Shown here one piece after another: positions 7,328 to 61,613 of a DNA stretch of 64,000 nucleotides. The notes beneath the pieces were generated by a model. The model was not told where the DNA came from, did no database searches, and saw only the letters and a list, made by a program, of their open reading frames with translations. The position numbers and the translations under genes were made by a program. The DNA is from a virus. The stretch is from the IMG/VR virus record IMGVR_UViG_3300000956_000001, positions 1 through 64,000 of that record; one strand, written 5' to 3'. Numbering within the stretch: the stretch's first letter is position 1; every line of letters starts with the position of its first letter.

Positions 7328-7417
7328 CATTGGAAAGAATGGCAAGTAAAAGCTGTACGGATGCCCATGATGCACCTATCCTAGATATGCGTAAGCCCAA
7401 CGGACTAGGAGGTCTAC

Positions 7418-7771
7418 ATGGGTAGCGTTGAAGGTATCCCGAGTGATCCAGGCTTCTGGTGGAAGCTGGTTAATCTCAATCCGACGTTGTGGCGAGCATT
7501 GATTGTTGCCACCATCGCGCTGCTTGGCGCGGCGGGCATCGCGGTGAATGGGTCTATCGAGGATTCACTATTCCTGTTTATCACTGCATTGGCAGCGATC
7601 ATTCAGGGTGTATGGACTCGCGGTTCTGTGACCGCAAACCAGAAGGTGGTTGTCTACAAGCCGGATCCAATCGGCGAGCCTCGCAATCTTCAGCCCGGTC
7701 CGTCGGTAAGTTACGAGGAGACGCGAGTCAATGCTGCTGCGCAGGCAACAGTAGATCCGGCGAACATGTAA
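7418..7771 (+). CDS. Holin-like membrane protein (2 TM)
   Basis: Two hydrophobic helices, GGAGG RBS, immediately upstream of the endolysin. Confidence 0.6.
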   Translation: MGSVEGIPSDPGFWWKLVNLNPTLWRALIVATIALLGAAGIAVNGSIEDSLFLFITALAAIIQGVWTRGSVTANQKVVVYKPDPIGEPRNLQPGPSVSYEETRVNAAAQATVDPANM

Positions 7772-7780
7772 GGGAGCGCC

Positions 7781-8782
7781 ATGGCATCTCAGGCGTACTA
7801 TGACTGGGTCAGGGCGGGCAAGCCGTACAATCGGTCAGCCCCTGTCATGCAGCTTCGTGATGTTTTGCGAAGCCATGGCTACACTGTCTACGACTACCCT
7901 GACGAAGCGCATCAGAAGGCCAACCTTCCACAGGACCACACTGCGTACTCGGCTACAGGTTGGCCGGTCTCATCGCCTCGCTGGTGGGCATTCGGGATTG
8001 ATCAGATGCCCGGCAAGGGTGGCATGAGTGACCTCGCTGATGTCGCCATGCAGATCATCAAGGACAAGGACGCTGGCGTTCCTGGGACCGAGTGGATCAA
8101 GTACATCAACTGGACTGACAAGTCTGGCAAGTGCTGGCACACATCCTGGAAGCCGAATAAGTCAACAGTTCCGAGTGACGACAAAGGCCATAATCATATC
8201 AGCGGACGATCGGACTTTACGTCCCGCACGACTGTGAAGTATGATCCAGTTGCTCGTATGCGTGGCCAGGTAACAACAGGAAGGCAGGACGAGGATATGG
8301 CGATCATCGCACGCGGACCTGACGGCAAGGTGTATTTCTGCAGTGCAAATCGATCGTACCCCATCCCCGAGACTTCGGTTGGCGACAGGGTCTACCTCGC
8401 AGGTCAGGGTGCGTATTTCCTGGCTCGTGGTCCGGTTGCTGGCGATGCCGAGTGGGAGAAGGGCGGCATCATTCGCAAGGGCTGGTCAGAGAACATCTTC
8501 GGGATCGTCGACACCGGCGATCTTCAGTCAACGCGTCCTCACGGGTGGGCACTTGCCACGCGCGTTGAGGCGATGGCTAAGATGATGCCAAAGTCGCAGA
8601 CTGGCGAGGATATCAAGATGGTGTCAGCCATCGAGGCGGGTGCCAGCGGTGGTGACGCAGCCCTTCCGGTCGACGTCGCAACCGTGAAGGCTGGCGTGAC
8701 GGCAGCGCTCAAGGACGAGGAAAACCAGGCTGTTCTGGTGGATACCGCTTTCCGCGGTTCACAGAAGGCTGAGCAGGAGTAG
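7781..8782 (+). CDS. Endolysin, probable Zn peptidase N-terminal domain
   Basis: DH...GID...HNHIS metal-ligand pattern resembling M15-type peptidases; flanked by holin-like genes. Confidence 0.6.
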   Translation: MASQAYYDWVRAGKPYNRSAPVMQLRDVLRSHGYTVYDYPDEAHQKANLPQDHTAYSATGWPVSSPRWWAFGIDQMPGKGGMSDLADVAMQIIKDKDAGVPGTEWIKYINWTDKSGKCWHTSWKPNKSTVPSDDKGHNHISGRSDFTSRTTVKYDPVARMRGQVTTGRQDEDMAIIARGPDGKVYFCSANRSYPIPETSVGDRVYLAGQGAYFLARGPVAGDAEWEKGGIIRKGWSENIFGIVDTGDLQSTRPHGWALATRVEAMAKMMPKSQTGEDIKMVSAIEAGASGGDAALPVDVATVKAGVTAALKDEENQAVLVDTAFRGSQKAEQE

Positions 8783-10569: not shown

Positions 10570-11729
10570 GTCTTCTTCATCACCTTTACTTGAGGATCGC
10601 CCTGCTTGTAGCTGATCGCCGTATTCATGAGGCTAGCCTGTGCTGGACCGAGTCGCGGATCCTTGCGCAACGCATCCAGATCCCCCAGGTTAAGTCTACC
10701 GTAATCCTTCATCAGTTCCGGACCAATGATTGCAGACATGAGATCTCGATCGATGACTCGCTTTTTTGGAGCAACCACAGTTACCTTGTGGCGATCGAGA
10801 TCGAACTCAGTCATGTCCTCTTCGAGTGCATGCTTCATCATTGCAAGCTCGACGTCATCAATCGTTGACTTGATCGCTTCGACTTGACCCTTGAGCTGGT
10901 ACAGGAGTTCAGCCAGCTGTTCGATCGACAGCGTGAAGATGCCGCCCGCGCGCAGGTTGGATTGCAGTGCTTCGCACGTAAACCGCTTCGGACAGTACCG
11001 GCAGCCCTCGTTCAGTGTTTCCGGCGGATCCTCGAACGGAGTGTCTACGATGCGCTGAAGTTCCGCCATGAGGAACTTCCAGGTGTTGATGTTGTCCTGT
11101 TTGGTGAACAGTACGGCGACCCGCTCGTAGCGGAGGAAGTCGAACTGAACCCAGATTTCCTTTGCGTCAGGGAACTTGATCTGAACAGCGAGTGCGTACA
11201 GCTTCGGTTGGATCTTGTACTTCAGATCTTCCGGCTTGAGTGGCGTACGTTGCGACTTGTAGTCTACTACTCGGTAAACTCCTTCATCAAGCTTGTCTAG
11301 GCGGTCAATGATGAAGTTGCACGGCATTTCATAACGGACGTTATCAATCCAGTAAGGAACAACAAAGGTTTCCTTGATTTCACGAGAGATGATCTCGTTG
11401 TCAAGGATGTCATTCTGGATGTCGTTGCGGCCGTACCACTTCTGAAGGATGGCAAGACCATCATGCCACCATTCACCCTCCATGGGCTGACCCACGAATG
11501 TGAGTGCCCAGCCCTTCATGTAACCTTCGAGGAGGCGCTCCCATTCCCAGGCCATCGTTGCGACGTATTCTGGTTCGAGGAAGTACTCGAGTGCATAATG
11601 GAGCGTGGTACCAAGCCAGGCAGGCTCGCTGCCCTTGCCGGTACCACGCTCCATTGCTGTGGCCTTGAATCGGGCCATGCATTCGGCGGCGGTAGTCAGC
11701 GACGATGCACTGATGGACTTAGGAATCAC
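10566..11729 (-). CDS. Cas4/RecB-like PD-(D/E)xK exonuclease
   Basis: SASSL..AAEC, GTTLH, IIDRLD...VVDYKS, QPKLYA and CRYCPKRFTC (Fe-S-type Cys pattern). Confidence 0.85.
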   Translation of the reverse strand: MIPKSISASSLTTAAECMARFKATAMERGTGKGSEPAWLGTTLHYALEYFLEPEYVATMAWEWERLLEGYMKGWALTFVGQPMEGEWWHDGLAILQKWYGRNDIQNDILDNEIISREIKETFVVPYWIDNVRYEMPCNFIIDRLDKLDEGVYRVVDYKSQRTPLKPEDLKYKIQPKLYALAVQIKFPDAKEIWVQFDFLRYERVAVLFTKQDNINTWKFLMAELQRIVDTPFEDPPETLNEGCRYCPKRFTCEALQSNLRAGGIFTLSIEQLAELLYQLKGQVEAIKSTIDDVELAMMKHALEEDMTEFDLDRHKVTVVAPKKRVIDRDLMSAIIGPELMKDYGRLNLGDLDALRKDPRLGPAQASLMNTAISYKQGDPQVKVMKKT

Positions 11730-27003: not shown

Positions 27004-27172
27004 GTGTTGCCCACTCGCGAATGTTCTCGTAGTTCAGAGCATCCATTACAATGCTGTGATGAGCGCCCGCTCGGTCCGTGCACGTAGGCGAGAAGGCGCA
27101 CGCACCAGCCTTTTTATCGTCAGGGCTGTGCATGACTGGCGGTAGCAGCTTGAATGTCACGATGAAATGCAT
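26720..27172 (-). CDS. Hypothetical protein
   Basis: TAATG overlap with the recombinase stop. Confidence 0.5.
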   Translation of the reverse strand: MHFIVTFKLLPPVMHSPDDKKAGACAFSPTCTDRAGAHHSIVMDALNYENIREWATHEGMHVTRIEEIFFIKSIPGEYDVPVSGGQLGVDGREADGGSTRLSSAHADTTFDLSPATGPLVEYPITGICSGFNAAREVEEDRARRRVSSGD

Positions 27173-28014
27173 TACTTGTTTCCACTCTCGCGCATCTCAT
27201 CGAACGTCATGCCGATGTAGCGCATTGTCGTGTTGACGTCAGCGTGACCGAGCCATCGCTGAAGAAGTGTGATGTCTCTTGTTTGCTTGTACAGAACCGT
27301 CGCGAATGTCGCGCGCAGGTCATGACTAGCAACTGGACGAGATATGCCAGCCCTGACGCCCAGCTCCGTAATGAATGATCGCGCACCACGGTCACTGTAG
27401 TTAATCAGTCGCTCACGTCCGGAAATCTGAACGGCGATGATCTGCGGTGCCAGGAACGTGAAAGCTCGATTCGTCACCGGGATGACTCGAAGCTTCTGCC
27501 CCTTACCCCACACGCTGATCGATAGTCCCGAAAGATCGATGTGACTATCTTTCAGCTCTAGAGCTTCATGCATGCGAAGTCCCTCGCACCCGAGTAATGC
27601 GACAAGTGCTCGCTTCTCGTCAGTGTCGCATGCAGCGAGCATCTTGTTGAGATCATGTTCGCGATTCGGAAGGGGGTGCGCCTCTGCGGTTGGAACGGCT
27701 GGAAGCTTGTAACGCTTCAGGACGTCGCCCTCAAACCCCAGGTATTCCTTCAATGCCAGGATGCTCGCCTTGCGTCGACGAATCGTCATCGGAGCCAACT
27801 CGATATCCGTCGACAGCTTCAGCCATGTCGCTGCCAGCCTCGGCAGGTCCTCCACCTGAAAGGACTTGACCCCCAATTCCTTGAAGAGCATCTTGATATC
27901 GCTGGAGTACGCCTTCACTGTGTGCACCGACCGGGAGAACTGAACGTCGGACAACCAAAGTCGGAAGCCCTCGATATCCTCGGTCGTCAGAGTCGTCACC
28001 TGTGGCATAGTCAT
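27172..28014 (-). CDS. Tyrosine recombinase (XerC/D-like, 280 aa)
   Basis: Catalytic set GLR, GKG.K.R, HDLR, LGH, RY. SAM-like N-terminal domain (TVKAYSSDIK); no arm-binding extension. Confidence 0.92.
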   Translation of the reverse strand: MTMPQVTTLTTEDIEGFRLWLSDVQFSRSVHTVKAYSSDIKMLFKELGVKSFQVEDLPRLAATWLKLSTDIELAPMTIRRRKASILALKEYLGFEGDVLKRYKLPAVPTAEAHPLPNREHDLNKMLAACDTDEKRALVALLGCEGLRMHEALELKDSHIDLSGLSISVWGKGQKLRVIPVTNRAFTFLAPQIIAVQISGRERLINYSDRGARSFITELGVRAGISRPVASHDLRATFATVLYKQTRDITLLQRWLGHADVNTTMRYIGMTFDEMRESGNK

Positions 28015-48822: not shown

Positions 48823-49045
48823 CGTGTCCTAGTGGATAGATTGCCCGTTGGCACATATGGCATCTGACCTGCTGTTATGCTAGACCAGGCGCCGGTAATG
48901 TCCGAATTGCCAGATTTTACCGTCTTGCCCGACTAAGAGGGCTTTGCGTAGTGAACGCCACCTTTGAGTGAGAGTGCCTCACTTGTGACGACATGCACGT
49001 AGATGCCCTGTGCAGGTGCAATTGCCTCTTTGCAGTGTATACAAG

Positions 49046-49447
49046 TCATTTGTCCGTTTTGTCCTTCTTGCGGGTCTTTCTGGGCTTAGTTGACTTTGCG
49101 TGCTGTAGCCGCTGCAATGTGTTCTTTTCGATCTCAATCATCATCAAAGCGGCATTTCGGACTTCCGGGGTAAAGGGTCCAGTGTACCCCATAGTGAACA
49201 GAACGGCTTTTGCAGCCATATCGTTCTGTTCGCGGCGAGAGAGAGACTTCTGCACCGGAGCCGAACTTTTGCGCTCAGACTTCCCATCCTTGGATGCCTC
49301 ACCACGGATGATGACAACTCGGCTACAGGGGAGCGAATCGTCACCATCCGTGGTAAGGCGGACAACGATACCAATTGGGGCAGAGCTAGACTCGCGCACC
49401 AATTCGTAGTATCTCGCCTTATCAGGATCAAAGAGCATATCGCGCAC
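49046..49447 (-). CDS. Hypothetical protein
   Basis: 133 aa, basic C-terminus; first gene downstream of the stem array. Confidence 0.55.
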   Translation of the reverse strand: MRDMLFDPDKARYYELVRESSSAPIGIVVRLTTDGDDSLPCSRVVIIRGEASKDGKSERKSSAPVQKSLSRREQNDMAAKAVLFTMGYTGPFTPEVRNAALMMIEIEKNTLQRLQHAKSTKPRKTRKKDKTDK

Positions 49448-49534
49448 CTTTCAGGTTTTACCAGTCATGTGGCACTAACAGGGTAAAACATTACAGTTGC
49501 ACCATATCAGGGCATATGACTCAAAAAGGACATA

Positions 49535-49804
49535 CTACCTGGTAACTACTTCCATGACCTCAGTCTGGCGAGCGATCTCAAATTCGGCAATGTTGCGCTT
49601 TCCAGGCGTACCGGGCGAAGCGGACATACACTGCGTAACGGCTTCAAGTGCATCCTCGTACGTATCCCAGGAACACTTCCGATTCCAGTACAATTCCCAC
49701 CAGATGCCACTTCCGTCCCCATCCAGGTAATTCACCCGGAAGCAGACATCAGGTTGATACTTGCGCAAAACGCGCAACTCGGGCTGTTCAGACATCTCGG
49801 ACAT
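49535..49804 (-). CDS. Hypothetical protein (cassette A)
   Basis: 89 aa, AAGGTGGG RBS. Confidence 0.6.
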   Translation of the reverse strand: MSEMSEQPELRVLRKYQPDVCFRVNYLDGDGSGIWWELYWNRKCSWDTYEDALEAVTQCMSASPGTPGKRNIAEFEIARQTEVMEVVTR

Positions 49805-50099
49805 AACCCACCTTCCCAGACTTTCGGGGTAGACGAGACATATGCCCCCATAAGGTACAACTGTGATGTTAATCTGGAATCGTCATAGATGCACCTGATG
49901 CGCGCATTCCGGAGGTTACAGACTAAACGGACATACTACTTAGATGCGTAGTAACCAGTCACGATGACTGCAAATACGACCCAAGCGACGATGAAGCCAA
50001 ACCAGAACTTCTGGCCATTTGTCATCTTGTCACCACAAACAACACGAAGGCCGCCCATAGTACCATCAGTACAAAGGCGGCAAAAAGAAGCTTAATCAC

Positions 50100-50642
50100 T
50101 CATTCCTCCTCAAAACGGACAACCTTCGCGCCGCCGTCATCTGTCTCCATTACCGTAGGAAGCAACAGATGGCCACGAACCGTAATGCTCTGGTCATCCT
50201 TGCCCTTGTTGCGCAACTGCCACTTTTTGTTAGCAACGCGACAAGAAGGGCACCTGCACCCATACATGGAGTAAGACAGGTAATTGCCGTGACTCGTCCA
50301 ACTCGGTTCGAAACGGATAAACCAGTCCCAGCACCAGGTTTCGATGCATTTCGGGCAGATACTCTGGTAATCCGCATCGGCGTCATGAGCACACGTAGTG
50401 CACACATCTGTCGAGACGATGACATTACGCCCGTAAGGCGCGATAATGCGCCTTCTGGGCGCATTCACCGAAGGGGGACGAACGTCCTCATTCAGTGCAA
50501 TGTGCACGATCTGCCCAACTTGGACATTACGCCAGTCAATCTGGCGATTCACTCCGCCGATGACAAACTGGTCGTACTCGCCCTTCACGTCAGATTTCGG
50601 GGCAATCGTCTGGTATTGAACAGATGACGATCCTTTTCCCAT
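50100..50642 (-). CDS. Zn-binding hypothetical protein (cassette B)
   Basis: CTTC, CPKC and HG..SY..YGCRCPSC motif; AAAGGTG RBS. Confidence 0.6.
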   Translation of the reverse strand: MGKGSSSVQYQTIAPKSDVKGEYDQFVIGGVNRQIDWRNVQVGQIVHIALNEDVRPPSVNAPRRRIIAPYGRNVIVSTDVCTTCAHDADADYQSICPKCIETWCWDWFIRFEPSWTSHGNYLSYSMYGCRCPSCRVANKKWQLRNKGKDDQSITVRGHLLLPTVMETDDGGAKVVRFEEE

Positions 50643-50753
50643 TTTACACCTTTACCCTTTATCAGGCATCAGGTGCATTTATGACGATTCCAGATTATTA
50701 GTGCCAACTACACTGAACCCACTATTAGGGGCAGAACGGACATCGCAGACATG

Positions 50754-51299
50754 TCAGTCTTTCGTGTCGTACCAGACATGACCGTGCTCATCTACGTGAG
50801 CTGGCTCATCCAGGACATGCTGTGCATCAGCGTTGCATTGCGTCTCATATGGTGACATTGCACCACACAGTGACGTTTGGGGCGCTTCGACACATTTGGA
50901 CACGGGAGTCATGCGGTAGCTTACGTGCATCAATACGAGGATTTCGCACGCATTGCGCAACTGCCGCAGAAGGGGCAACTGTTCCGAAACGTAAAACCGT
51001 CGCAGAGTGTCATCATCGTCCTCATTCATGCGATACGACACATAGTCGACACCGCTCTCATTTGTGACGATTCGGACATACCCGACGATGTGCTCCATCT
51101 GGTTTTGGTCCGACTCGTGCCAGATGCACGTATCAGACCAAACGCCCGCCCATGGGCCCTCTTGTACGGTTACGATCGGCTTTGCCCAGATTGCACCGTA
51201 ACGCGTCATTTGACGGACTGCGGTATCTTTGTCGTCAATGACCCTGTTGTGCGAGTTGTGCGAGTTGTCCATCTCTCCACCTTTTTCAGGTTTTAGCAC
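50754..51299 (-). CDS. Hypothetical protein (cassette C; start probably 51272)
   Basis: AAAGGTGGAG precedes MDNSH. Confidence 0.55.
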   Translation of the reverse strand: MLKPEKGGEMDNSHNSHNRVIDDKDTAVRQMTRYGAIWAKPIVTVQEGPWAGVWSDTCIWHESDQNQMEHIVGYVRIVTNESGVDYVSYRMNEDDDDTLRRFYVSEQLPLLRQLRNACEILVLMHVSYRMTPVSKCVEAPQTSLCGAMSPYETQCNADAQHVLDEPAHVDEHGHVWYDTKD

Positions 51300-51334
51300 T
51301 GGATGCCCTACTAAGGGACGAGACGCGCGGTTGC

Positions 51335-51595
51335 CTACGGTTGTACCTTTCGTCCGCCCTGTGGCGATTTGTCGTCGTCTGCTACCTTGTGTCCGTATTG
51401 GATCACAAAGTCGTAGATGTCCGATTTAATCAGCGTGCGGCTAAGCAGTAGGTGCGCCAGAATTGCACCTCTTCCGGGCCTTTTGTCCTGATCAGGGTAT
51501 TCTGGGGTGATTGCGTTACAAATCTGCGCAACCGTCATGAAGTGCCCGTATTCGTGACCTTTGAACGCATTGAGAATGTGGTCCCGGATTGTCAT
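51335..51595 (-). CDS. Small putative DNA-binding protein (cassette C)
   Basis: Similar to the C-terminus of ORF 46735-47850. Confidence 0.6.
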   Translation of the reverse strand: MTIRDHILNAFKGHEYGHFMTVAQICNAITPEYPDQDKRPGRGAILAHLLLSRTLIKSDIYDFVIQYGHKVADDDKSPQGGRKVQP

Positions 51596-52029
51596 CAGAT
51601 GTGCGGTCCGTCCAGATGGTCGAAGATGTCCGATTTGAGGTAAACCGCCATCATCAGGACCGATTGGAGTAGTCCACCCACGTTCTGGCCGTGATCGTCC
51701 ATTGATCCCTGTTCGGCACCACTGTCCACGATGAGGCTAATTGCCTGCTCTGCGGCCTTTTCGTAGTTAAGGTGCATGTCTCCGGTTTGGACCAATTCGC
51801 CCAGTTCGTTCGGATCAAGAAGATTGTCCGGAAGAGGCTGATTGTCCAGATCGCGCCGAAGGACCAACAACGCACCATATGCGGTGAAAATGGCCTTTTC
51901 GATGTCATCGCGGAGAAGCTCACGTTCTGATGCGGTAAGACGCGAGTTGCGTGTGTTTCCCATTTTGCCCACCTTGGCGACTAAGTGTGAAATGCGCACC
52001 TCGTCCCATAGTAGGGCATCCAGTACCAT
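51595..52029 (-). CDS. Hypothetical protein (cassette C; start probably 51963)
   Basis: AAGGTGGGCAAAATG start motif. Confidence 0.55.
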   Translation of the reverse strand: MVLDALLWDEVRISHLVAKVGKMGNTRNSRLTASERELLRDDIEKAIFTAYGALLVLRRDLDNQPLPDNLLDPNELGELVQTGDMHLNYEKAAEQAISLIVDSGAEQGSMDDHGQNVGGLLQSVLMMAVYLKSDIFDHLDGPHI

Positions 52030-52173
52030 TCTTGACAGAATATGACGTTACCTTACATATTTTGACATATGCCAGTTATGTCCGATTCTGCCCCTAATGG
52101 TGGGTTCAGTGTGATTCATACGGCTTGTTAGTAACATCCCAAATCGTCTGCTATGCACCTGATGTCTGATTTG

Positions 52174-52371
52174 CTAAACAGTGACCGGTTTGCCCGTTTT
52201 CAGGTCAATCATCTCGGTTTGTCGTGTTAGAGGTGCAACTGTCCGCTTCGGGGGATTCTTCCCATTTACCCGCTGCGTGAATGTCTGACCGCATGTGTCA
52301 CACATTCTGCGGATATGGGTACCTGTGCCCGGTAGGTGAGTCACCTCCCTATTGCAGTGCATGCGTACCAT
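52174..52371 (-). CDS. Small Zn-ribbon protein (cassette D)
   Basis: HC...CDTC. Confidence 0.5.
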   Translation of the reverse strand: MVRMHCNREVTHLPGTGTHIRRMCDTCGQTFTQRVNGKNPPKRTVAPLTRQTEMIDLKTGKPVTV

Positions 52372-52417
52372 TCTCGCCTACCCGTGCTAGTTGGTGCCGT
52401 TTGTCCAGTTTGTGACG

Positions 52418-52612
52418 TTACTTGGTGATACCTTTCGGTATCCACCGAGGTGTGGTGCAAACGTAGCATTCGCCACACTTGTACCACGTGTCCGAGTATC
52501 CGCAATCCTGGTCGAAATCCCACCATCCAGGCACTTCGCCCAGTTTGATGGACTTGTCCGTTTTGCGGTTCCTGACAACGTTTCTGATAGCATTGCGCAG
52601 ATTGATACCCAT
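52418..52612 (-). CDS. Hypothetical protein (cassette D)
   Basis: AAAGGTGG RBS before MGINL; Cys cluster. Confidence 0.5.
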   Translation of the reverse strand: MGINLRNAIRNVVRNRKTDKSIKLGEVPGWWDFDQDCGYSDTWYKCGECYVCTTPRWIPKGITK

Positions 52613-52750
52613 TGTACTGATTCCACCTTTTGTCCGTGTTGCCCGTTTTAAGGGGTTTGTGAACACCAGGTGCATAGCAGACGATTTGGGATGTTGCAGA
52701 CTGAATCACCATTTACGTGCCAGTTGTCGCACATTATGCTGGTTTGTCCG

Positions 52751-52963
52751 TTAGTTCACAATCTGGATAACTAAGGACGTTATCCAGAGAATGACTAGAA
52801 CTACCCAGATTGCTAGGGCTATCCCGGTGTGTGGCTTCATGTCCGTTTTGGTCCTTATGTTACCGAGTGTACAGTTTGCGACCCTTGCGCACCAGGTACA
52901 CATACATACCGTTAGCCCGCTGAAAACGCAAATGCGTGACTTTGGGTCCGATGAGGTATCCAC
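52751..52963 (-). CDS. Small membrane protein (cassette E; start uncertain)
   Basis: C-terminal TM helix. Confidence 0.4.
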   Translation of the reverse strand: MDTSSDPKSRICVFSGLTVCMCTWCARVANCTLGNIRTKTDMKPHTGIALAIWVVLVILWITSLVIQIVN

Positions 52964-53030
52964 CCCAGTTGGTCCATTGGCACGTCATGCACTCATTGTC
53001 TGCGATGTCCGAAATGCTAGACATGTGCGA

Positions 53031-53480
53031 TCAGAGCGCCTTGCACACGTTCTGGGCGAACCATTCCCATGCGTCCCGTTGCCAGGCGACAGGTCCGAAG
53101 TGGTACGTCCAGTGCGGAAGGTACGGTTCGGCCATCTCTGCCACGATTCCGGTAAAGCTGTGCGCGTATGCACCGATACCGATCAGATCGCCCGGCATGT
53201 CGATAATGCCCTTGGATGCCCGATATGAGGGGTTGTATTCCGAGACGACCCAAAAGACCAGTGCGGTATTGATTGCCCGCATTGCACCTCTTGGGTCGGT
53301 TGCGTGGAAGAGCTGGAATGCCCGTCCCATGCGACCTTCGCACAGTGCGTGATACATTGCGGCATTTTCCCGCATTGTCGCACCTGAGTGCATTTCCAGG
53401 ATTACGCCTTTTGGCTGGTTCGTCCCGTTGGCACCGTTCGCGAAGGTTTCCTTGATTGTCACAGTTGCCATGATTCCCAC
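53031..53480 (-). CDS. Hypothetical protein (cassette E)
   Basis: ~146 aa, AAAGGTGGG RBS. Confidence 0.6.
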   Translation of the reverse strand: MGIMATVTIKETFANGANGTNQPKGVILEMHSGATMRENAAMYHALCEGRMGRAFQLFHATDPRGAMRAINTALVFWVVSEYNPSYRASKGIIDMPGDLIGIGAYAHSFTGIVAEMAEPYLPHWTYHFGPVAWQRDAWEWFAQNVCKAL

Positions 53481-53600
53481 CTTTTGTGTGTCTTGCCCGT
53501 TTTAAGGACAACTGGCACATAAAAGGTGATTCAGTCTGCTATGGTTCAAACGCCCTACTAGGTGCCTGATGAGCTGAATGTGCTGGATGTCTGGGTTGTG

Positions 53601-53987
53601 CTAGTCCATCCAGAGTGCGAAGTTTCCGTCGATAACGCCATAAACAGCCTGGTGTGTACGGTTCTGTCCGTATTTTTCCAGTTTGTCGTATTCGAGCGTT
53701 ACGACCCAGTCTGAGTCGTCACAGTGCCTTAGGCACCCATAACCGCACTTATCATCGTGAATGTGCCGTCCGTTACCATCTGTGACGTTTAGCACCCTTA
53801 CGGACGTGATGTCGTAAAGGGGCCAGTTGTCACGAAAGTACTGAACGGGCCACATGTCCGAATACTCCGGATCGCACCGAAGTTCCAGACTGTACACATT
53901 GCGCTGAATGAGGTCTTTGCGGTAATGTTCCAGAATGTCCCCGAAAGGTGCATCTGGCCGCTCCGCCACCGTCCGCGTAGCCTGCAT
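53601..53987 (-). CDS. Hypothetical protein (cassette F)
   Basis: 128 aa. Confidence 0.55.
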   Translation of the reverse strand: MQATRTVAERPDAPFGDILEHYRKDLIQRNVYSLELRCDPEYSDMWPVQYFRDNWPLYDITSVRVLNVTDGNGRHIHDDKCGYGCLRHCDDSDWVVTLEYDKLEKYGQNRTHQAVYGVIDGNFALWMD

Positions 53988-54000
53988 CGGTTTGTCCGTT

Positions 54001-54426
54001 TCAGCCCGTGATGGTGTTGATGTCTTTGTTGCCCATCACGCGCACACTGCGTGCAAGGTCCGAAAGGAGCTGCTTGACCGTTGCGACCGGAAAGCCCTCA
54101 TTGAACGGACTGTCCATCAATTTCCGATTGTCCGAGATGAACCATTCGTCCAACATGACCCCGTAATCCCAGAATGTCCGGTTATACACCGGGCCGCTCG
54201 AAGTGTGACCGTATGTCCGGCCGTAAGGGAACATGTAGAGAGTGTCCCTTTCGTCCGTAATGTACGTGAAGTCGCCGATCGTCACAAAAGCCCGATCGAT
54301 GACAGTTTGCGAGTCACATCCCATTCCAGCCAGATTGGCCGCAATGTAGACTTCGTCCGCATAGTCACGCTTCATGGTGCTAAGTGCGCTATGCGTCGGG
54401 ATGGTCGACTTGTCCATTTTGCCCAC
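54001..54426 (-). CDS. Hypothetical protein (cassette F)
   Basis: AAAGGTGGGCAAAATG start motif. Confidence 0.6.
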   Translation of the reverse strand: MGKMDKSTIPTHSALSTMKRDYADEVYIAANLAGMGCDSQTVIDRAFVTIGDFTYITDERDTLYMFPYGRTYGHTSSGPVYNRTFWDYGVMLDEWFISDNRKLMDSPFNEGFPVATVKQLLSDLARSVRVMGNKDINTITG

Positions 54427-54593
54427 CTTTGATGATGTCTGATCTAGTTTGCCCGATCAGGCACCTAGTAGGGCGTTTGAACCATATAAGCCGTATGGGT
54501 AGTTTCGCGCTGAATGACCTATTAGTGGTCGAATGTCTGTATTACCTGTATTGCGTGTAATGCCAGTTTTTACCGTGATGTCCGACTAAGATG

Positions 54594-54953
54594 CTAGTCG
54601 ACCCCGTTTTCCGATCCGTCGTAAACGCGCGAGATGTCCTGCATGTCCTCAATGGACTCGATGACCTGCATGCGTGCCATGTCGCGCTTGTTGGTTTTGA
54701 TCCATTCCACGCAGTACTTCACGGTTTCGCCGTTGTCGACCCAGATTTCGTAAATGTCCGTTGCGAGTTGGTCTGGGTAGGCGATGGCGATTGCAGCCAA
54801 GAACGCCGCATGTGTCACCTTGTAGGCGTTTCCACCCGCAATGTCACCATCCGGGCTGAATGCCACAGATGAGTGGACCTGTCGCATAAGTTCCGCGAAG
54901 TCGGTCTTGCGCGTTTCGCCACCAATGACCGGAATGTCCAGTTCTCGCATGAT
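54594..54953 (-). CDS. Hypothetical protein (cassette G; start near 54950)
   Basis: AAGGTGGG precedes MRELD. Confidence 0.55.
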   Translation of the reverse strand: MMRELDIPVIGGETRKTDFAELMRQVHSSVAFSPDGDIAGGNAYKVTHAAFLAAIAIAYPDQLATDIYEIWVDNGETVKYCVEWIKTNKRDMARMQVIESIEDMQDISRVYDGSENGVD

Positions 54954-55199
54954 GCCCACCTTGTGTGTGATGTCCGAATTGCCAGTTTTAAGGCATTCGA
55001 CCACTAATGGGCCATTCAGAGCGAAATGCCCCCTAACATTCCAGAATCACCCGCTTCGGCCCGTGTAGAGCCGTAATGTCTGTCCGGTCCCGAAATGAGG
55101 GGACCTAAGCACATTTGGGTGATTCTGGATGCCTTGGGGGTAGTATGCGCTGAATGCCCTATTAGATGACGGTTGGGGTGGGTGAGTCCGTTTTGCCTG

Positions 55200-55754
55200 T
55201 TAGATGCCGTATCCGTTGTCTGTCGCGATTGTGTCGATCAGTTCGACAAAGGTACAAAGCCCTTTTTGGTAGTTCTGGTACATCTTGCGGATTGCGTCAC
55301 CGTTCGGACCGTCTTCGCCCGTTTTGCGCAACCAGAACCCAATTGCCATACGAACAGACCATTCGTACCAATAGTGCGAACTGTGCACATGGTCCGTGAT
55401 GTCCGTCTGTTCCCACAATTCGTACATCTGGTCCCACTCGTTACCTTCGTCCCAGATTTCCTCGGATGAGACGTAAAGGGCCAATGCGCCCGTTTCGCAC
55501 CAGATGTTGTACTGCTCCCGATCCATGACGTTCTGGATGATTTTGCCCTCATCGCCCATATGCCAGACGGTTCGGGTGCCTTTGTCCAGAACGTAACGGA
55601 ATGTCCCCAAGGGACCGTCTTGTCCGATTTGGCCCAGAATGACCAATTCCTTGACGAATGAGACGGGAGGAGTCATAAGACCCGTGTTGCCCATTTTGCC
55701 CACCTTTTCCCTACTAAGTGCGGTTTTGTCTAGATAAGTCCGTTTTGTACTCAT
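55200..55754 (-). CDS. Hypothetical protein (cassette I; internal start MGNTG likely)
   Basis: AAAAGGTGGGCAAAATG motif near 55694-55710. Confidence 0.6.
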   Translation of the reverse strand: MSTKRTYLDKTALSREKVGKMGNTGLMTPPVSFVKELVILGQIGQDGPLGTFRYVLDKGTRTVWHMGDEGKIIQNVMDREQYNIWCETGALALYVSSEEIWDEGNEWDQMYELWEQTDITDHVHSSHYWYEWSVRMAIGFWLRKTGEDGPNGDAIRKMYQNYQKGLCTFVELIDTIATDNGYGI

Positions 55755-55845
55755 CTACCCTAACCGTCACCTAATGAGGCATTCAGTGCATACCTACCGG
55801 TTCGTCATGATGTGCCCTATTAGGGCCTGGATGTCTGTTTTCGTG

Positions 55846-56268
55846 TCAGTTGTACTTTTCGTCCGTGACGTCGCAAATCAGCGGGTTCTCACCGTTCGTC
55901 CCGATTGCCCATACCTGAGCACGATACGGGTCAGTATTGGTGATTACGCGCCCGAATGTCGCATCTGACTTGTATTCGCCATACACGTGGATTTCGGTGA
56001 CTTCGACCGTTTCGCACGTCTTGACCAGTTCTTCCAGTTTGTCCAAATTGACCGCTACGTACCCACATGCCCAGCATGACTGACACACCCGGATAAGTCC
56101 CATTGTGCCGGAAATGACTGGAATGCCCGCGAAGTCCGTTTTGAACTCTTCGAGGCAAAGGCCGCATTCGTCGTGGTAAGTCCGAATTCCGTCTTCCGCG
56201 TTGAAATCGACGGAAGTGACCGTAATGACTGTCATGATAGCTGTGCCCACCTTTAGGTTGTTTTGCAC
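55846..56268 (-). CDS. Hypothetical protein (cassette J)
   Basis: CGLC...CQSC; AAAGGTGGG precedes MTVIT. Confidence 0.55.
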   Translation of the reverse strand: MQNNLKVGTAIMTVITVTSVDFNAEDGIRTYHDECGLCLEEFKTDFAGIPVISGTMGLIRVCQSCWACGYVAVNLDKLEELVKTCETVEVTEIHVYGEYKSDATFGRVITNTDPYRAQVWAIGTNGENPLICDVTDEKYN

Positions 56269-57342
56269 TGGAATGTCGCTGATGTCCGTTTCGGTCTTTC
56301 ACAAGATGGACATTCCAGGCCCTAATGGGGCACACCATGCCGAACCATCGGCAATCTATCCACTATGGACAAGTCAAACAACAATGTGACACAAGCCCCT
56401 AAAGGCGCCTAAACCGCATAATTGCAACTGATACACCCTTATATGGGGCAATTTCAGTCTAAAACGGACATTTCCCAGTTTTACCGTCTTTGCCCACTTT
56501 AGTACCGTCTACCCACCTTTGTCGCGTTTGCCCGTCTTTGGTGCCGTCTTGTCGTACTTGTCGGCTACGCGGCATCTGGGGGCCTTTGCCCGGGATGTCC
56601 GTTTCAGTGCGGTTTAGTTGTCAATCAACCCGTGTCGCCAAGCGTGGCGCCTAGCGGCCGTGCTGTCGTGCGGGTGGTGCCCCACTAGCCTAGCACCCCC
56701 CTAGGCGCAGAGCTCGGACAAATCGGACTTATCACGATAAGAACGCCCGCCTGAAATGTCCGTTCTGGCCCACCTTGCCCCGGTATGACATCGGCCGAAA
56801 GTACGATATAGGTCTGACCGTTCGGGGGATGGACGAACTAATGCGGCATCTCGGCTACGCCCGCCCATATCGGCCCAGAATCGGACATAAAGACGGCCGG
56901 ATAAGTCACGATAAATCGTCTTAAAACGGACAGGGACATATCACCTCAAACCGTCTCAAAACGGGCACGGACATACCGCCTGATAGCACCTCAAAACGGA
57001 CGTGATGGCCCTAACCCCGGTTGACCTGCGAAAACGCCGTAGGATCGCCGTAGGGGCGCTAGAATTGGCCGATGCATACCCGTGCCCCCAACGGGCGTGT
57101 AGGCGCGTCAGCGGCGGCGCTAGGGGCCTTAAATGGCCGATTCCGCTAGCCCCCACGGGTGGGCGGGTAGGTGGGCAAACGGGGGTGTAGTAGGCCAGAT
57201 GGGGCAGTGTCGTGATATATCATCTTAAATCGGACATCTGACGATATAGCGCTGAATGGTACGAGATTGGGGGAAAGAGGGGAATGTCCGATTTATCATC
57301 TTATGTTGTAAGGGGGCGTAAGATAGGGGGCTATGCGCGCAA

Positions 57343-57546
57343 GTCCACTGTGGACAGATGGGATTCATGATCTTCTATATTCAAGATCATGAGAGCGTGA
57401 CGATCTTGAATATAGAAGATCGTAAGAGTGTGACGATCTTCTATATTCAAGATCGTCTATCATCACTGATCTTAGATATTCAAGATCATGAGAGTGTGAC
57501 GATCTTGAATATAGAAGATCATGAATGAGATCTGTCCACTGTGGAC
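57343..57546. repeat. Five GATCTT-N8-AAGATC pseudo-palindromes at an exact 33-bp period, bracketed by GTCCACTGTGGAC
   Basis: Units start at 57369, 57402, 57435, 57468 and 57501; bracketing palindromes at 57343-55 and 57534-46. Confidence 0.92.
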
Positions 57547-58141
57547 TCACGCATAGACGATCATGGATGGCTCAGCTACGGGCAAGTCGGACATTGGGGA
57601 CTTAGGTGGAGATTGTGGGGGATAGGGTGATATTGAGGTGAAAAGTCCTAGGTTTCGGGAATCTGGGGCTATTTGTGTATAAGGGGTATCTGGGGGACAA
57701 GTCGGAAATTACATATCATATGGCATATATCGCTCTTTGTCGTTGATCTGGTAAATGTCCTGGTTTGGGTGAAAATGGCGTTTTCGGTAGACTTGTCGCT
57801 TGTGTGCAGAATGCCCGCATAAAGGCGACATATACGGTATATACGTCATGGGCCTTATATCGGACTTGTGCCCTATGACTGATAATGACCTTTTATTACA
57901 CTTTGTCCGTTTAGGGCCCGGCTAGACTCGGACAAGTCGGACATGTCGCATATAGGCGCTCATCTGGGGCAAATGCGACAGGGGCGGGCAAAGGGTGCCG
58001 ATAACTTATATTATCGGCAGACGGATATATCGTGACAAAGTAGGACAAATCGGACTTGTCCACCATGCCCGAGTTGGGGGGTATGAGAAAATTGTCGGGG
58101 GGGTGCGCGCGAGCGCCCTCTGTGCCCTGTCGCTACTTATG

Positions 58142-58232
58142 AAATTTTTACGAGGGCATGATCAACATAAATCTGGCTATACCATCTGTCACCTCCCGAT
58201 ACACACAAAATTTTTACGAGGGCATGATCAAC
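58142..58232. repeat. 25-bp direct repeat
   Basis: AAATTTTTACGAGGGCATGATCAAC at 58142 and 58208. Confidence 0.85.
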
Positions 58233-58374
58233 TATACCTGTCAAATCTTTGTCCACCTGCCCAGAAGGCGAAACCAGCTCAGCCACCTAGGATTCGCACT
58301 GAAGTACGTAACGCCACGTAATGAGTAACGGAGACGATAGGGGGTATCGGTGACGGTCCCATGATCGTTTGCCA

Positions 58375-58915
58375 CGAAACCTAAATGGCCTGTGACCTGC
58401 ATATATATAGGGTTTAGGGGTTTAGGGGGTTTTAATTTTAAAAATCTAATATACCTAGCTCTGACTTGGTTTTCGTCACTGTCCGTAGACGCTGGGTGGT
58501 GGGGGAGCATCTTGGGGTATAGACCCGTATAAGATGGTTTGCCAATCTGGTTGGGTGTGGGGGCTTATAGGCGAAAAAAACCCCGGAACCCCTAAACCCC
58601 TATTTGATCTATGTTTTCGCAGGTCAAAACCCCTCCCGAAACCTCCGCCGAAACCCCCCCCGAAACCCCCCTATGATCATCTAGACAGCGTCCCCGAAAC
58701 CGATAACGTCCCCGAAACCCCTCGGCAAACGGAAAAAACGGACAGAGCGATGGCCCGGTCCGTGAGATCTGCAGTGTCTCGCGCGGCCGGGCCATCGTCT
58801 GAAATATGTAGTTATCAGGGGTTGTGGGGACGATCCCCGAAACCTACGAAACCTATCCTAGCACTACGGTTTCGGGGATTCGGGGGTTTTGGATTGCGTC
58901 CCCGAAACCCCCGTG
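58375..58915. repeat. Cluster of CCCCGAAACC-like repeats in both orientations (candidate origin iterons)
   Basis: About ten or more CGAAACC/CTAAACC copies around an AT-rich patch (58400-58455), next to the primase/helicase genes. Confidence 0.6.
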
Positions 58916-59640
58916 ATCGTTGCGTTGACGTACTCGGGTACGTCGGGTCGGTAGGTGAGGTGCAGGAACCTGTAGAGTTTCAGGGGGGTATCCAGCTGAA
59001 TATAGGGGGTTGACTCTTGGGTTGGAAGTACTGGACGGTTCGTCTGATGGGTATAGACCGTCCAGGCAAACAAGAGTGGTTCGATCGCTGCGTACTGAGG
59101 AACCGACAGCTTCAGCTGGCTGTAGCGTGCAGTACGGGAGCTAACTGTCGGCTTCAGGCCCATTCTGACCAGGCGAAGCTGGGATGTTTCGTTCTGTGCA
59201 TCACGTCTCGCACGCCTGCAAAGAGGTCCCTTGCAGCCCTGCCTGTAGGTGAGTGACGTGCCATGCGTGCTGCTGTAGTCGGGATCTGCCAGCTCTGAGG
59301 CAATCAGATCCAGAACGATGACGTGTCGTTCTGGAATATAGAACCCCAGTTTCGGTACCCTGACACAGCGTTCGTGTTCTGTGAAACGGATGCTGAGTTC
59401 GTTCGGTGCGAGCTTAAGCGTCCTAGGAAGCCGCTCTGCTTTTCCAAGAGGTGGTTGGATCACGAGCATCTCTCTCAGTGGAATTGATGAAAGACTGACT
59501 TGAGTAGTGACTGGCTTGTGGTTGTGACGCGCGCCAACTGAGTTAAGGTCGAAGTGCGGATTCGCGAGACTCGTGAAGTCAGTCATCTCGTCCATCGTGC
59601 CATACTCGGCCCGGTAGCCCTGCATGCCCTTACTCATCAC
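58864..59640 (-). CDS. Hypothetical protein with HG..Y..GC...C Zn motif
   Basis: THGTSLTYRQGCKGPLCR; GTGA overlap with the helicase gene. Confidence 0.55.
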   Translation of the reverse strand: MMSKGMQGYRAEYGTMDEMTDFTSLANPHFDLNSVGARHNHKPVTTQVSLSSIPLREMLVIQPPLGKAERLPRTLKLAPNELSIRFTEHERCVRVPKLGFYIPERHVIVLDLIASELADPDYSSTHGTSLTYRQGCKGPLCRRARRDAQNETSQLRLVRMGLKPTVSSRTARYSQLKLSVPQYAAIEPLLFAWTVYTHQTNRPVLPTQESTPYIQLDTPLKLYRFLHLTYRPDVPEYVNATITGVSGTQSKTPESPKP

Positions 59641-61613
59641 GCACTCACCGCCACTCCCGGAGCAAGTGTATAGGCAGACGTCGGGCGGCCTCCGTTGGGT
59701 CCGGGCGGCACCTTCATCTCGATCAACATCCCCAAAACTACAAGATTCTCGAGATTTTTGCGGAACTTCCCAATAGAACTGTTTTTGCGCTTCATTACCT
59801 TGTAAAGCTCGTTTGCGGTTGGTCCTCGGCCAGGTCCTGTCATTCTCATCACATGACGCAGAATCAGATCATTCTCGTCCGACTCCTGAGACGCTGCGAT
59901 CTCGGTCTCGACGATTCCGTAGGTCTCAATCACGTGCGGGAACAGGCTGAGAACGCGAATCACGATGTCAGCAGTGATGACGTCGCTGCCTTCGTTAATT
60001 GCGAAGAGCAAGAACAGCTTCTTCATCATCAGATCGAGACGCTGTGTGATCGCTACGTCATTACGCTCACGCTGAGGTACGTACACTTTGTGAAAGAAGG
60101 TGTCCCATGCGTTCTCCCCGAGGCGCTCCCAGGTGACAACTTCGTGTGCGCGCGTCTTCATGTTGATCCCGGTCAGGATACTAGCCGCCCTGTCGAGATC
60201 AATTCGAGTGCGGTTAATGCTGAACGGCTTCTTTGGAGTGCCTGAAACGAATGCCCAGCGGTTGGCAAAGCCGCTATTGTCGTCCCCCTGGGTAATGAGC
60301 GTCCGAATCGACTTGAACTGCGTCGTAGTGATTGCGCTACCGAAGGGGCGCTCCGCACCGATGTTGCCGTGCGTCATCGACGTACTGGACAGCCAGCGCG
60401 GCGAATCGTACAGATCCATCAGTGTGGTCTTGAGTGTTGACCCTTGACGGTTGTTCTTGCCGATCAGGGTCGCAAGTTCCTCAAAGTCGACCAGTGCACG
60501 AATGAATGGCCAGCTACCGATAACCTTACCGGTGCCAGGGTCCACCATATCGTGCTGGAACTGCTTGATGAGTACCTCGCCCGACTGGATGCCGTTAAGA
60601 TACTGAGCACCGAACGGCGGCTGGTCGTCCCGCCTGTAGGGGAGCGCCTCGTGAATCAGGTTCGTCAGGTGTCGCTTCGACTTGGACTTGCCGGTACCGG
60701 TGCCGCCGACGAGGCAGACAAAGAGGTTACCGGCAACCTGAGGACTATCTTCGAGGGTTCGCATCCCCCCAACGGCCAGTCCGAGACCGAGAAGGCCGTT
60801 CCAGAAGTGAAATTCTTCCGGACTGTCATCCACACTTGTGGCGTCGAGATAAGTTCGGAGGAACGTATCCTCTGGAACAATATCCCGCCAGGCGATTCCT
60901 GGGTGCTGTCGGTTGGCGTTGAGGTCATTTGTGAGCTTCAGCTCCTCCGCTTCAGACCCTTCGGCCGTGTAGATGACGTTCTCGTTGTTGCTCTGGTCAG
61001 ATCCGGGCTCCGTGACGGTTGTTACTGCAATTGGCAGCTGTGGCGTCTGAACTACGAACGGATCGCCAGCAATGCCCTTTTCGATCCTAAGACCGAAGAA
61101 GTCGCCAATCGCCTCACGAAGAGCCCTGAAGCTGGCAGGATCGGCCTTATAGCCAGGCACCGGGTAGCCGAACCGCCACGCAGCGATATCCCAGATGTCT
61201 CCACCGCCACACTTGGCACAGTTGAAGACGTTCTTCTCGGTGTTGAGCCAGCAGCTTGGGTCGTGGTCGGGGTGTGCAGGGTTCGGACACCGAACCTTGA
61301 TGCTGTCTTTGCGGCCGCCGGGATTACAGTGGCCCTTGTCGGCCCACTGGTTGTAAGCGTCCACGATGCTGATCATCGCGATAAAGTCGTCCAGAACGCG
61401 CTGCTCTGGACTGATCTGCGAAACCTTGTCTTCTTCTTCGCTCATATCGGGAATGAACTCCCGATACTGAGCCATGAACATGTCGCCCTGCTGAGCTTCA
61501 TATTCTTCATAGCCACGCTTCAAGCGCAGCTTGTACGCAAACGTCGTCTCGCCATCGAGCTGCTGCTGCTCAGCTTCCCATTCGGCGCGGGACTTGTGGT
61601 CCAACCATCCCAC
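59637..61613 (-). CDS. Primase-associated Zn finger plus P-loop helicase-like (DUF3987-type) replication protein
   Basis: CPNPAH...FNCAKCGGGD (CHC2-like), Walker A GGTGTGKS, GFANRW, C-terminal wHTH ending GGRPT..Y. Confidence 0.75.
   Translation of the reverse strand: MGWLDHKSRAEWEAEQQQLDGETTFAYKLRLKRGYEEYEAQQGDMFMAQYREFIPDMSEEEDKVSQISPEQRVLDDFIAMISIVDAYNQWADKGHCNPGGRKDSIKVRCPNPAHPDHDPSCWLNTEKNVFNCAKCGGGDIWDIAAWRFGYPVPGYKADPASFRALREAIGDFFGLRIEKGIAGDPFVVQTPQLPIAVTTVTEPGSDQSNNENVIYTAEGSEAEELKLTNDLNANRQHPGIAWRDIVPEDTFLRTYLDATSVDDSPEEFHFWNGLLGLGLAVGGMRTLEDSPQVAGNLFVCLVGGTGTGKSKSKRHLTNLIHEALPYRRDDQPPFGAQYLNGIQSGEVLIKQFQHDMVDPGTGKVIGSWPFIRALVDFEELATLIGKNNRQGSTLKTTLMDLYDSPRWLSSTSMTHGNIGAERPFGSAITTTQFKSIRTLITQGDDNSGFANRWAFVSGTPKKPFSINRTRIDLDRAASILTGINMKTRAHEVVTWERLGENAWDTFFHKVYVPQRERNDVAITQRLDLMMKKLFLLFAINEGSDVITADIVIRVLSLFPHVIETYGIVETEIAASQESDENDLILRHVMRMTGPGRGPTANELYKVMKRKNSSIGKFRKNLENLVVLGMLIEMKVPPGPNGGRPTSAYTLAPGVAVSA

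Follow-up and report, generated by a model that had tools for sequence, protein, structure and literature searches.

Gene-enclosing inverted repeats with a shared asymmetric core in a soil actinophage operon: candidate long-range processing helices

Why should a row of small phage genes be enclosed, unit after unit, by long inverted repeats that carry the same imperfection at the same place? The question is raised by an array at positions 49487-56346 of a 64,000-nt stretch of DNA (the window), which is the first 64 kb of the 82,629-bp IMG/VR phage record IMGVR_UViG_3300000956_000001, a genome with direct terminal repeats. The array is a ~7-kb leftward operon of small minus-strand ORFan genes, each preceded by an AAGGTGG ribosome-binding site, and it contains 11 inverted-repeat pairs, here called stems (A, B, C with E nested inside it, D, E2, F, G, H, I and J). 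An original prediction, made by eye from the sequence, had noted TATTAG in the left arm opposite CTAATG in the right arm of four stems, and had likened this recurring mismatch to the determinants of integron attC sites or to a nuclease recognition feature. The latter appears, from the sequence, to be the most plausible reading of the mismatched core. It is tentatively proposed that, in a polycistronic early transcript, the stems form closing helices over long range, and that the shared asymmetric core is a determinant for a duplex-specific factor, probably the host RNase III.

The stems are real, with the sequences and coordinates originally described, but they are not local hairpins, since their arms are separated by 452-1349 nt that include genes. 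Across the whole array, arm length is 27-45 nt and complementarity 82-100%. In the 10 gene-bearing pairs the arms are separated by 312-1349 nt, each pair surrounding one to three unrelated small minus-strand genes; H forms a 64-nt loop without a gene. All arms fall between genes and share their orientation, and consecutive units abut, with 0-20 nt between the 3' arm of one and the 5' arm of the next. Ten inverted pairs of at least 25 nt were observed in 49400-56420, far above chance, since 100 dinucleotide shuffles gave 0.01 on average. No other gene-spanning arm pair of at least 20 nt was found in the rest of the 82.6-kb genome, nor was an outer inverted repeat (at least 20 nt, 80%) found around the entire array.

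Six of the 11 stems (C, E, F, G, I and J) share a core of ~16 nt, which in gene sense reads YUARUAGGGCAUYCAG in the 3' arm (UARUAGGG, then GCAUYCAG-like sequence) and CUGRAUGCC-C/U-AUUAG or CUACUA in the 5' arm. The flanks outside the core are private to each stem and complementary to their own partner, and the core stands at a variable distance, 10-25 nt, from the end of its unit. In C, G, I and J the sequence and coordinates place the TATTAG/CTAATG mismatch at one homologous position, as had been claimed: it is T·G on the plus strand, and in the sense (minus-strand) RNA it is C in the 5' arm opposite A in the 3' arm, always in this orientation (Table 1). The heptamer CTATTAG occurs at four sites on both strands of the window, all of them the left arms of these four stems; the count is unremarkable (4 against 1.97 expected), and it is the placement of the sites that is unusual. 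The other stem relationships noted originally also hold, F being a paired variant (CTACTAG/CTAGTAG, 31/31 pairs), and B and D sharing a second core, AATCGTC...ATGCACCTGATG. In E the arms read CTACTA/TAGTAG, with U·U one step further inward. The variant core of E and F has UAGUAGGG in the 3' arm and CUACUA in the 5' arm, and its 3'-arm A pairs with U.

Beyond the stems, exact matches to the core in IMG/VR numbered 31, all single and none in an array, and were judged to be chance. Two orphan copies lie directly upstream of ribosome-binding sites: CUUAGUAGGG (UUAGUAGGG) at 55707-55719, before gene I, and a variant, CUUAGUAGAC (CUUAGUAG), at 7838-7850 of a metagenome contig from a relative (L013), before its first array gene. 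No pairing partner was found for either. Several further regularities were considered and set aside. A constant distance of 13-15 bp from mismatch to inner end (13 in B, C and J; 14 in E and I; 15 in G) depends on the choice of mismatch and was not used; UAAUAG/UAGUAG do not serve as back-up tandem stops in a consistent frame relative to the upstream genes; a mini open reading frame is present only in the 5' arms of G and I; and for the resemblance of TAGGG to a T7-type promoter no single-subunit RNA polymerase was found, a control search likewise finding none anywhere.

The four mismatched stems were anchored on the mismatch, and 27 columns were compared. Compensated double changes account for 16 columns and changes on one side alone for 3; the remaining 8 are invariant, namely C·A, the next five pairs (AUUAG/CUAAU) and two others. 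The mismatch thus recurs at a homologous position, the same way round relative to the genes and within an invariant six-column core, and because C is always in the 5' arm it gives each helix, and with it each unit, the polarity that the original prediction had ascribed to it. The 15 cargo proteins have no mutual similarity, so that related arms surround unrelated cargo; the core thus behaves as a portable signal and did not arise through whole-unit duplication. The same data bear on a second explanation, a possible one though less probable than that preferred here: the mismatch may be functionless, and the core an inherited or homogenized module, perhaps from the palindromic promoter/hairpin box of related phages, with arm versions CAUUAG and CUAAUA copied between units and one mismatch too weak for counter-selection. 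The mismatches overall do look neutral (23 transitions, 11 transversions, no wobble bias), and E and F are paired at the mismatch position, so pairing there is tolerated. The motif also exists outside stems, as the two orphans show, and the relatives carry CATTC...GAATG and a TTGACATTCTGA box in every spacer. However, a neutral site should drift or be repaired, yet all four stems kept C·A even as 16 of the 27 neighboring columns changed with compensation, and the unrelated cargo argues against recent whole-unit duplication.

Private complementarity around a shared core suggests that the pairing of unit flanks matters, since neither protein sites on duplex DNA nor transposon ends need it. The duplex energies of the gene-enclosing pairs are -37 to -61 kcal/mol in the sense RNA, with similar values in antisense, whereas the abutting arms of neighboring units fold locally to -3 to -21 kcal/mol, which is much weaker. 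The gene-enclosing pairs are thermodynamically dominant, and the minimum-energy fold of the 7-kb sense RNA retains all 11 stems. Searches for sigma-70-type promoters and intrinsic terminators gave no enrichment in the array and none coinciding with the cores, which fits one long transcript; candidate promoters were found upstream of the array, in the 56.4-58.2 kb non-coding region. The early transcript is the most likely folding molecule, given the position of the arms outside reading frames, their co-orientation, the lack of internal promoters and the RNA-type spacer modules of the relatives. Separately, a sigma-70-like TTGACA-18-CATATT lies antisense at 52032-52061 on the plus strand, within the 61 nt of AT-rich sequence that separate the 5' arm of C from that of E.

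Could the cores instead be signals in double-stranded DNA, either promoter -10-like hexamers or operator half-sites for a phage regulator, with convergent sites at gene ends? The 5' arms occupy the position of the TTGACA box of the related phages Perlina and ReqiDocB7 (TTGACA-17-TAGACT in two spacers), the core TAG stands in place of the relatives' -10 TAGACT, and the left-arm core is partly palindromic (CTA-N-TAG; a 13-nt palindrome in J). Nevertheless, this is improbable. The original prediction had allowed that such cores might prove to be ordinary promoter elements, and this was not borne out: no core hexamer has the final T of a -10 element or a -35 partner at 16-18 nt, and the promoter scan is blank at the arms. 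Private complementarity of 27-45 nt would be needless for protein binding, and the spacing of the half-sites across junctions ranges from 0 to >100 nt.

A comparison within the lineage was provided by a run from another soil sample (X12, 2025), whose contigs are 90-99% identical to the array and represent a relative that is ~5% diverged. For two of these contigs, together 727 nt, the list of differences is nearly complete and comes to 39. They include 111 nt of arm sequence (E2 left, I right and J left, with the CTAATG of I and the TATTAG of J), which contains at most 2 of the 39, where about six or seven are predicted from the rate elsewhere. The arm change among those listed is C>T at 54464 in F, the partner position of which is outside coverage. 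The X12 relative lacks unit A, one contig joining 49491 to the B left arm, with end points a few bases from the outer arm ends; it also lacks the gene at 51345-51596 (86 aa), and has a different sequence in place of 53979-54418 (a 138-aa gene). Its indels thus fall both at arms and inside units, and the array appears from these sequences to be a hot spot of gene turnover.

In the proposed processing or clamping pathway, the operon would be transcribed as one long early RNA, in which the 5' and 3' flanks of each unit would pair into a closing helix of 27-45 bp, like the leader and trailer of 16S and 23S rRNA. A duplex-specific factor, most simply the host RNase III, would then cut or bind at the helix, giving single-unit messages with both ends clamped by the inner 13-15 bp. 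The invariant AUUAG/CUAAU pairs together with C·A could form a sequence-and-shape determinant, which might fix the cut site or limit cutting to one strand. The enzyme of the host is proposed because the phage encodes none: no RNase III or dsRBD was found among its proteins, in a search whose control run finds the family in Corynebacterium glutamicum, and neither a Y1 transposase nor a T7-type polymerase was found (for the latter, the control search also found none). In silico, the unit flanks provide the ~2 helical turns or more of an RNase III stalk (27-45 bp, 82-100% paired), and RNase III is known to cut 10-36-bp duplexes in bacterial mRNAs whose strands are up to 505 nt apart (PMC11780869). 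Intergenic and abutting arms, stems kept in the fold, 16 of 27 covarying columns, the lack of internal promoters and arm conservation in X12 all speak for this pathway.

Several points weigh against it. Across all 11 stems the sense RNA has 328 Watson-Crick pairs, 11 G·U, 12 A·C and 11 transversion mismatches, so that both G·T and A·C types are present, as had been noted, and the strand that folds could rightly not be decided by eye, the G·U-compatible counts per strand in the arms of this phage being 11 and 12. The RNA-type pattern, with G·U tolerated and A·C avoided, was not found; G·U is not in excess of A·C and there are 11 transversions, unlike the spectrum expected for selection on one RNA strand. 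The fixed imperfection itself is a destabilizing C·A in the sense RNA and a benign T·G on the plus strand. Covariation of paralogous inverted repeats would also follow if each repeat had been made by copying at the DNA level, and a near-perfect duplex of 27-45 bp needs no special RNase III determinant. Unit A as a whole is present in one phage and missing from the other, the indel ending at the arms, which fits mobile DNA cassettes as well, and there is no RNA run among the public runs listed for this DNA.

The mobile-cassette explanation holds that the arms are DNA-level sites of gene cassettes, of which a circular or single-stranded form makes an attC-like hairpin read by a recombinase, the mismatch marking the strand. 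Unlikely as this seems, it would account for the end points of unit A in X12 at the outer arm ends, for related arms around unrelated cargo, and for the empty stem H and the nested unit E, and the phage does encode a tyrosine recombinase (27172-28014, minus strand, 280 aa). The latter is Xer-like, however, scoring 69 bits against the cut-off of 265 for TIGR02249, and lies 21 kb away; it is conserved in Reynauld, Perlina, ReqiDocB7, Mbo2, Jumbo, GordDuk1 and Gmala1, is not linked to the array, and is kept in relatives without stems. The attC likeness of the original prediction fails on all four defining features tested. Instead of a local hairpin of 57-141 nt downstream of each gene, the arms are split around genes, and abutting arms form no comparable hairpin; RYYYAAC/GTTRRRY core sites with a G|TT crossover are lacking, the nine junctions having neither a triplet nor a heptamer in common; in place of extrahelical bases there is a recurrent mismatch of one base opposite another, with no bulge; and no IntI-type integrase adjoins the array, the Xer-like protein being the sole tyrosine recombinase. 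The variable core-to-end distance is incompatible with cleavage at a fixed distance. Nor do the arms resemble the terminal repeats of transposons or miniature inverted-repeat transposable elements, since the outer ends are private, the core is internal and no Y1 transposase is present; no target-site duplications were found at the flanks of A or E, and two further X12 indels lie inside units, not at arms.

Since every unit lies between inverted repeats with a shared core, the repeats might also be sites of unit inversion, of the shufflon or Hin-like kind, with the asymmetric core as crossover site, and the tyrosine recombinase weakly matches a DNA-invertase family (E 7.5e-5). Of the explanations considered here this is the least credible. 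Contigs from three source-sample runs cross all imperfect arms in one orientation and contain no strand-changing joints, with the limits that such contigs drop rare variants and that F is unresolvable at k=31. Because the 31-nt arms of F are perfect, assemblies at k=31 yield this unit (53540-54486) as a 945-nt contig plus a 31-nt contig of double depth, and for this reason assemblies break at F alone and short-read graphs cannot fix its orientation. Inversion would also cut genes off from the operon, and the recombinase is common to relatives that have no such repeats.

Table 1. Arms and units of the stem array (window coordinates; mismatch bases as on the plus strand)
Feature	Positions	Strand	Description
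Unit A	49487..49870	-	arms 49487-49522 and 49835-49870, gene 49535-49804; absent in the X12 relative
Stem B, 3' arm	49870..49901	-	second core family, with D; one A·C (sense) 13 bp from inner end
Stem B, 5' arm	50666..50697	-	partner of 49870-49901
Stem C, 3' arm (left)	50710..50736	-	CTATTAG; mismatch base T50723 (A in sense RNA), opposite G52099
Stem C, 5' arm (right)	52086..52112	-	CTAATG; mismatch base G52099 (C in sense RNA); C encloses stem E and gene 50754-51272
Stem E, 3' arm	51298..51328	-	variant core UUAGUAGGGCAUCCAG; U·U one step inward, no C·A; nested in C
Stem E, 5' arm	51994..52024	-	partner of 51298-51328
Stem D, 3' arm	52133..52165	-	second core family
Stem D, 5' arm	52663..52695	-	partner of 52133-52165
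Unit E2	52696..53539	-	arms 52696-52728 and 53507-53539, carrying CTGAAT/ATTCAG
Stem F, 3' arm	53540..53570	-	variant core CUAGUAGGG; 31/31 paired
Stem F, 5' arm	54456..54486	-	partner of 53540-53570; C>T at 54464 in the X12 relative
Stem G, 3' arm	54494..54538	-	CTATTAG; mismatch base T54520, opposite G55009
Stem G, 5' arm	54991..55035	-	CTAATG; mismatch base G55009; gene inside at about 54594-54950
Stem H, gene-free	55020..55149	-	arms 55020-55052 and 55117-55149
Stem I, 3' arm	55143..55187	-	CTATTAG; mismatch base T55160, opposite G55776
Stem I, 5' arm	55749..55793	-	CTAATG; mismatch base G55776; gene inside 55200-55694
Stem J, 3' arm	55799..55831	-	CTATTAG within 13-nt palindrome GCCCTATTAGGGC; mismatch base T55818, opposite G56327
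Stem J, 5' arm	56314..56346	-	CTAATG; mismatch base G56327; first unit of the operon, gene inside 55846-56235

Stem H, combined with the core of the I 3' arm and that of the G 5' arm, constitutes a 49-nt local inverted repeat (76%). Another inverted repeat, of 28 nt (24/28), pairs 50486-50513 with 53886-53913, located between the coding regions of two array genes and 3.4 kb apart.

The phage itself was placed by its primase-helicase (59637-61613), which is 27-34% identical to those of DocB7-like actinophages of Rhodococcus, Gordonia and Tsukamurella, making it a distant relative of these phages, with which it also has CobT/AAA genes and the Xer-like recombinase in common. The public runs that contain it are soil metagenomes, and it is, to judge by these matches, an uncultured, DocB7-like soil actinophage. 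The cargo is without known counterparts in the collections searched: a Pfam scan of 10 cargo proteins found no family, a search of GenBank phages with two of them found no similar protein, tblastn and IMG/VR searches with three found no homologs, and blastn of the whole array against GenBank phages gave no match. Searches guided by the helicase yielded only distant relatives in IMG/VR (28-35%), nothing among genome contigs, one relative at 57% in JGI metagenomes (L013, an 8-kb contig that stops at the first array gene), and nearer relatives at 57-87% identity in a protein collection, with contigs of up to 88 kb. No description of gene-enclosing stems in phage operons was found in the published literature. 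For DocB7-like phages, a published note mentions a long non-coding region with many inverted repeats, and gives nothing further on the repeats (PMC4563357).

The named relatives have a different arrangement. ReqiDocB7 (L011 7400-12500) and Perlina (L012 12000-16200) contain syntenic rows of small leftward genes with spacers of ~100 bp, in which the repeats are local. Each such spacer combines three elements in order, namely CAGACA, a hairpin whose base is conserved (CATTCCC...GGGAATG) and whose top varies, and a palindromic TTGACATTCTGA...GAATG box, which in two Perlina spacers completes a TTGACA-17-TAGACT promoter. These spacers resemble the promoter-plus-stem-loop (PeSL) cassettes of T4-type phages (PMC2839356), and no earlier description of a PeSL-like grammar in these phages was found. 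The array studied here lacks the early promoter and local terminator stem-loop in each spacer that define PeSL. Its 3' arm occupies the position of the relatives' hairpin and is also preceded by CAGACAT or CGGACA, and its 5' arm occupies that of the promoter box. The CTGAAT/ATTCAG of several arms may descend from the relatives' box, which is offered as a lead. Gene-enclosing stems were sought in ReqiDocB7, Perlina, Mbo2, Reynauld and GordTnk2, and none was found per gene; GordTnk2 (L052) has a single 29-nt inverted repeat (26/29; 7767-7795 and 10658-10686) around the five-gene block gp91-gp95, adjoining the long non-coding region.

Two further sequence families were observed in and around the array. 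TGTCCG/CGGACA(T) is concentrated in 48890-58500, which holds 16 of the 21 genomic ATGTCCG sites; in gene sense, AAACGGACAT or CAGACAT stands just inside both ends of most units, and positions 5600-7700 of the 57%-helicase relative (L013), a non-coding region, contain >15 copies of AAACGGACATAAGGTGTAT in both orientations. This element is probably bound by a factor specific to the lineage. Perfect palindromes of 20-25 nt (GATCTTCTATATTCAAGATC and related sequences) are clustered at 57337-57552, upstream of the array where genes are absent, and may represent an origin, an operator or a recombinase site; matches to Rfam were limited to spurious miRNA-precursor hairpins at these 57.3-57.55 kb palindromes.

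If the stems act in RNA, they would represent a natural means of insulating and processing many unrelated genes on one transcript, each with its own helix and all with a common core, thereby extending the principle of the rRNA stalk to messenger RNAs and suggesting a design rule for synthetic operons in actinobacteria. To our knowledge, the substrate rules of actinobacterial RNase III are poorly known, and the fixed C·A would provide a compact, testable determinant of its cut site or strand choice. If the stems act in DNA, they would define a system of gene cassettes different from integrons. Set beside the DocB7-like phages, the array points to a switch, within one lineage, between a local hairpin plus promoter box per gene and gene-enclosing stems, which bears on the evolution of phage accessory regions. 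A broader and rather doubtful generalization is that the genes are plug-in units, each with a private long-range helix and one shared asymmetric core (AUUAG/CUAAU plus the fixed C·A) that a duplex-reading enzyme would read strand-specifically, either releasing end-clamped single-gene messages or moving gene-in-loop DNA cassettes, by a grammar distinct from integrons and from the intercistronic signals of T7 and T4.

Among known systems, attC sites are similar in being read by structure with little sequence conservation, and in their short core, strand-marking irregularity and unrelated, co-oriented small cargo; they differ in having a local hairpin after each gene, with R and L boxes and bulged bases, and an IntI next to the array, all of which are lacking here. 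In rrn operons, the leader-trailer helices of 16S and 23S rRNA are cut by RNase III, and there too the flanks of a unit pair over ~25-40 bp across hundreds to thousands of nucleotides, with several units per transcript. By contrast, the units of the array are protein-coding, eleven in a row, with abutting arms and private helices that contain a shared asymmetric core, and are known from sequence alone. The early RNase III sites of phage T7 (e.g. R1.1) are local intergenic hairpins, in which cutting is confined to one strand by an asymmetric internal loop several bases in size; as in the proposed pathway, a polycistronic early phage RNA is cut between cistrons and an asymmetric imperfection gives polarity, but the imperfection here is a single C·A in a gene-spanning stem. 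The RNase III sites in Bacillus subtilis mRNAs are also comparable, consisting of 10-36-bp duplexes of segments up to 505 nt apart, the long-range sites being cut on both strands with a 2-nt stagger; these are scattered single sites, for which an array, a shared core and a conserved mismatch are not reported (PMC11780869). Finally, the PeSL modules of T4-type phages likewise flank ORFan genes as repeated regulatory modules in an early hyperplastic region, with gene gain and loss at the modules, but they are direct repeats consisting of a promoter and a local terminator hairpin, and fit the spacers of Perlina and ReqiDocB7 better than the gene-enclosing stems described here (PMC2839356, PMC4122927).

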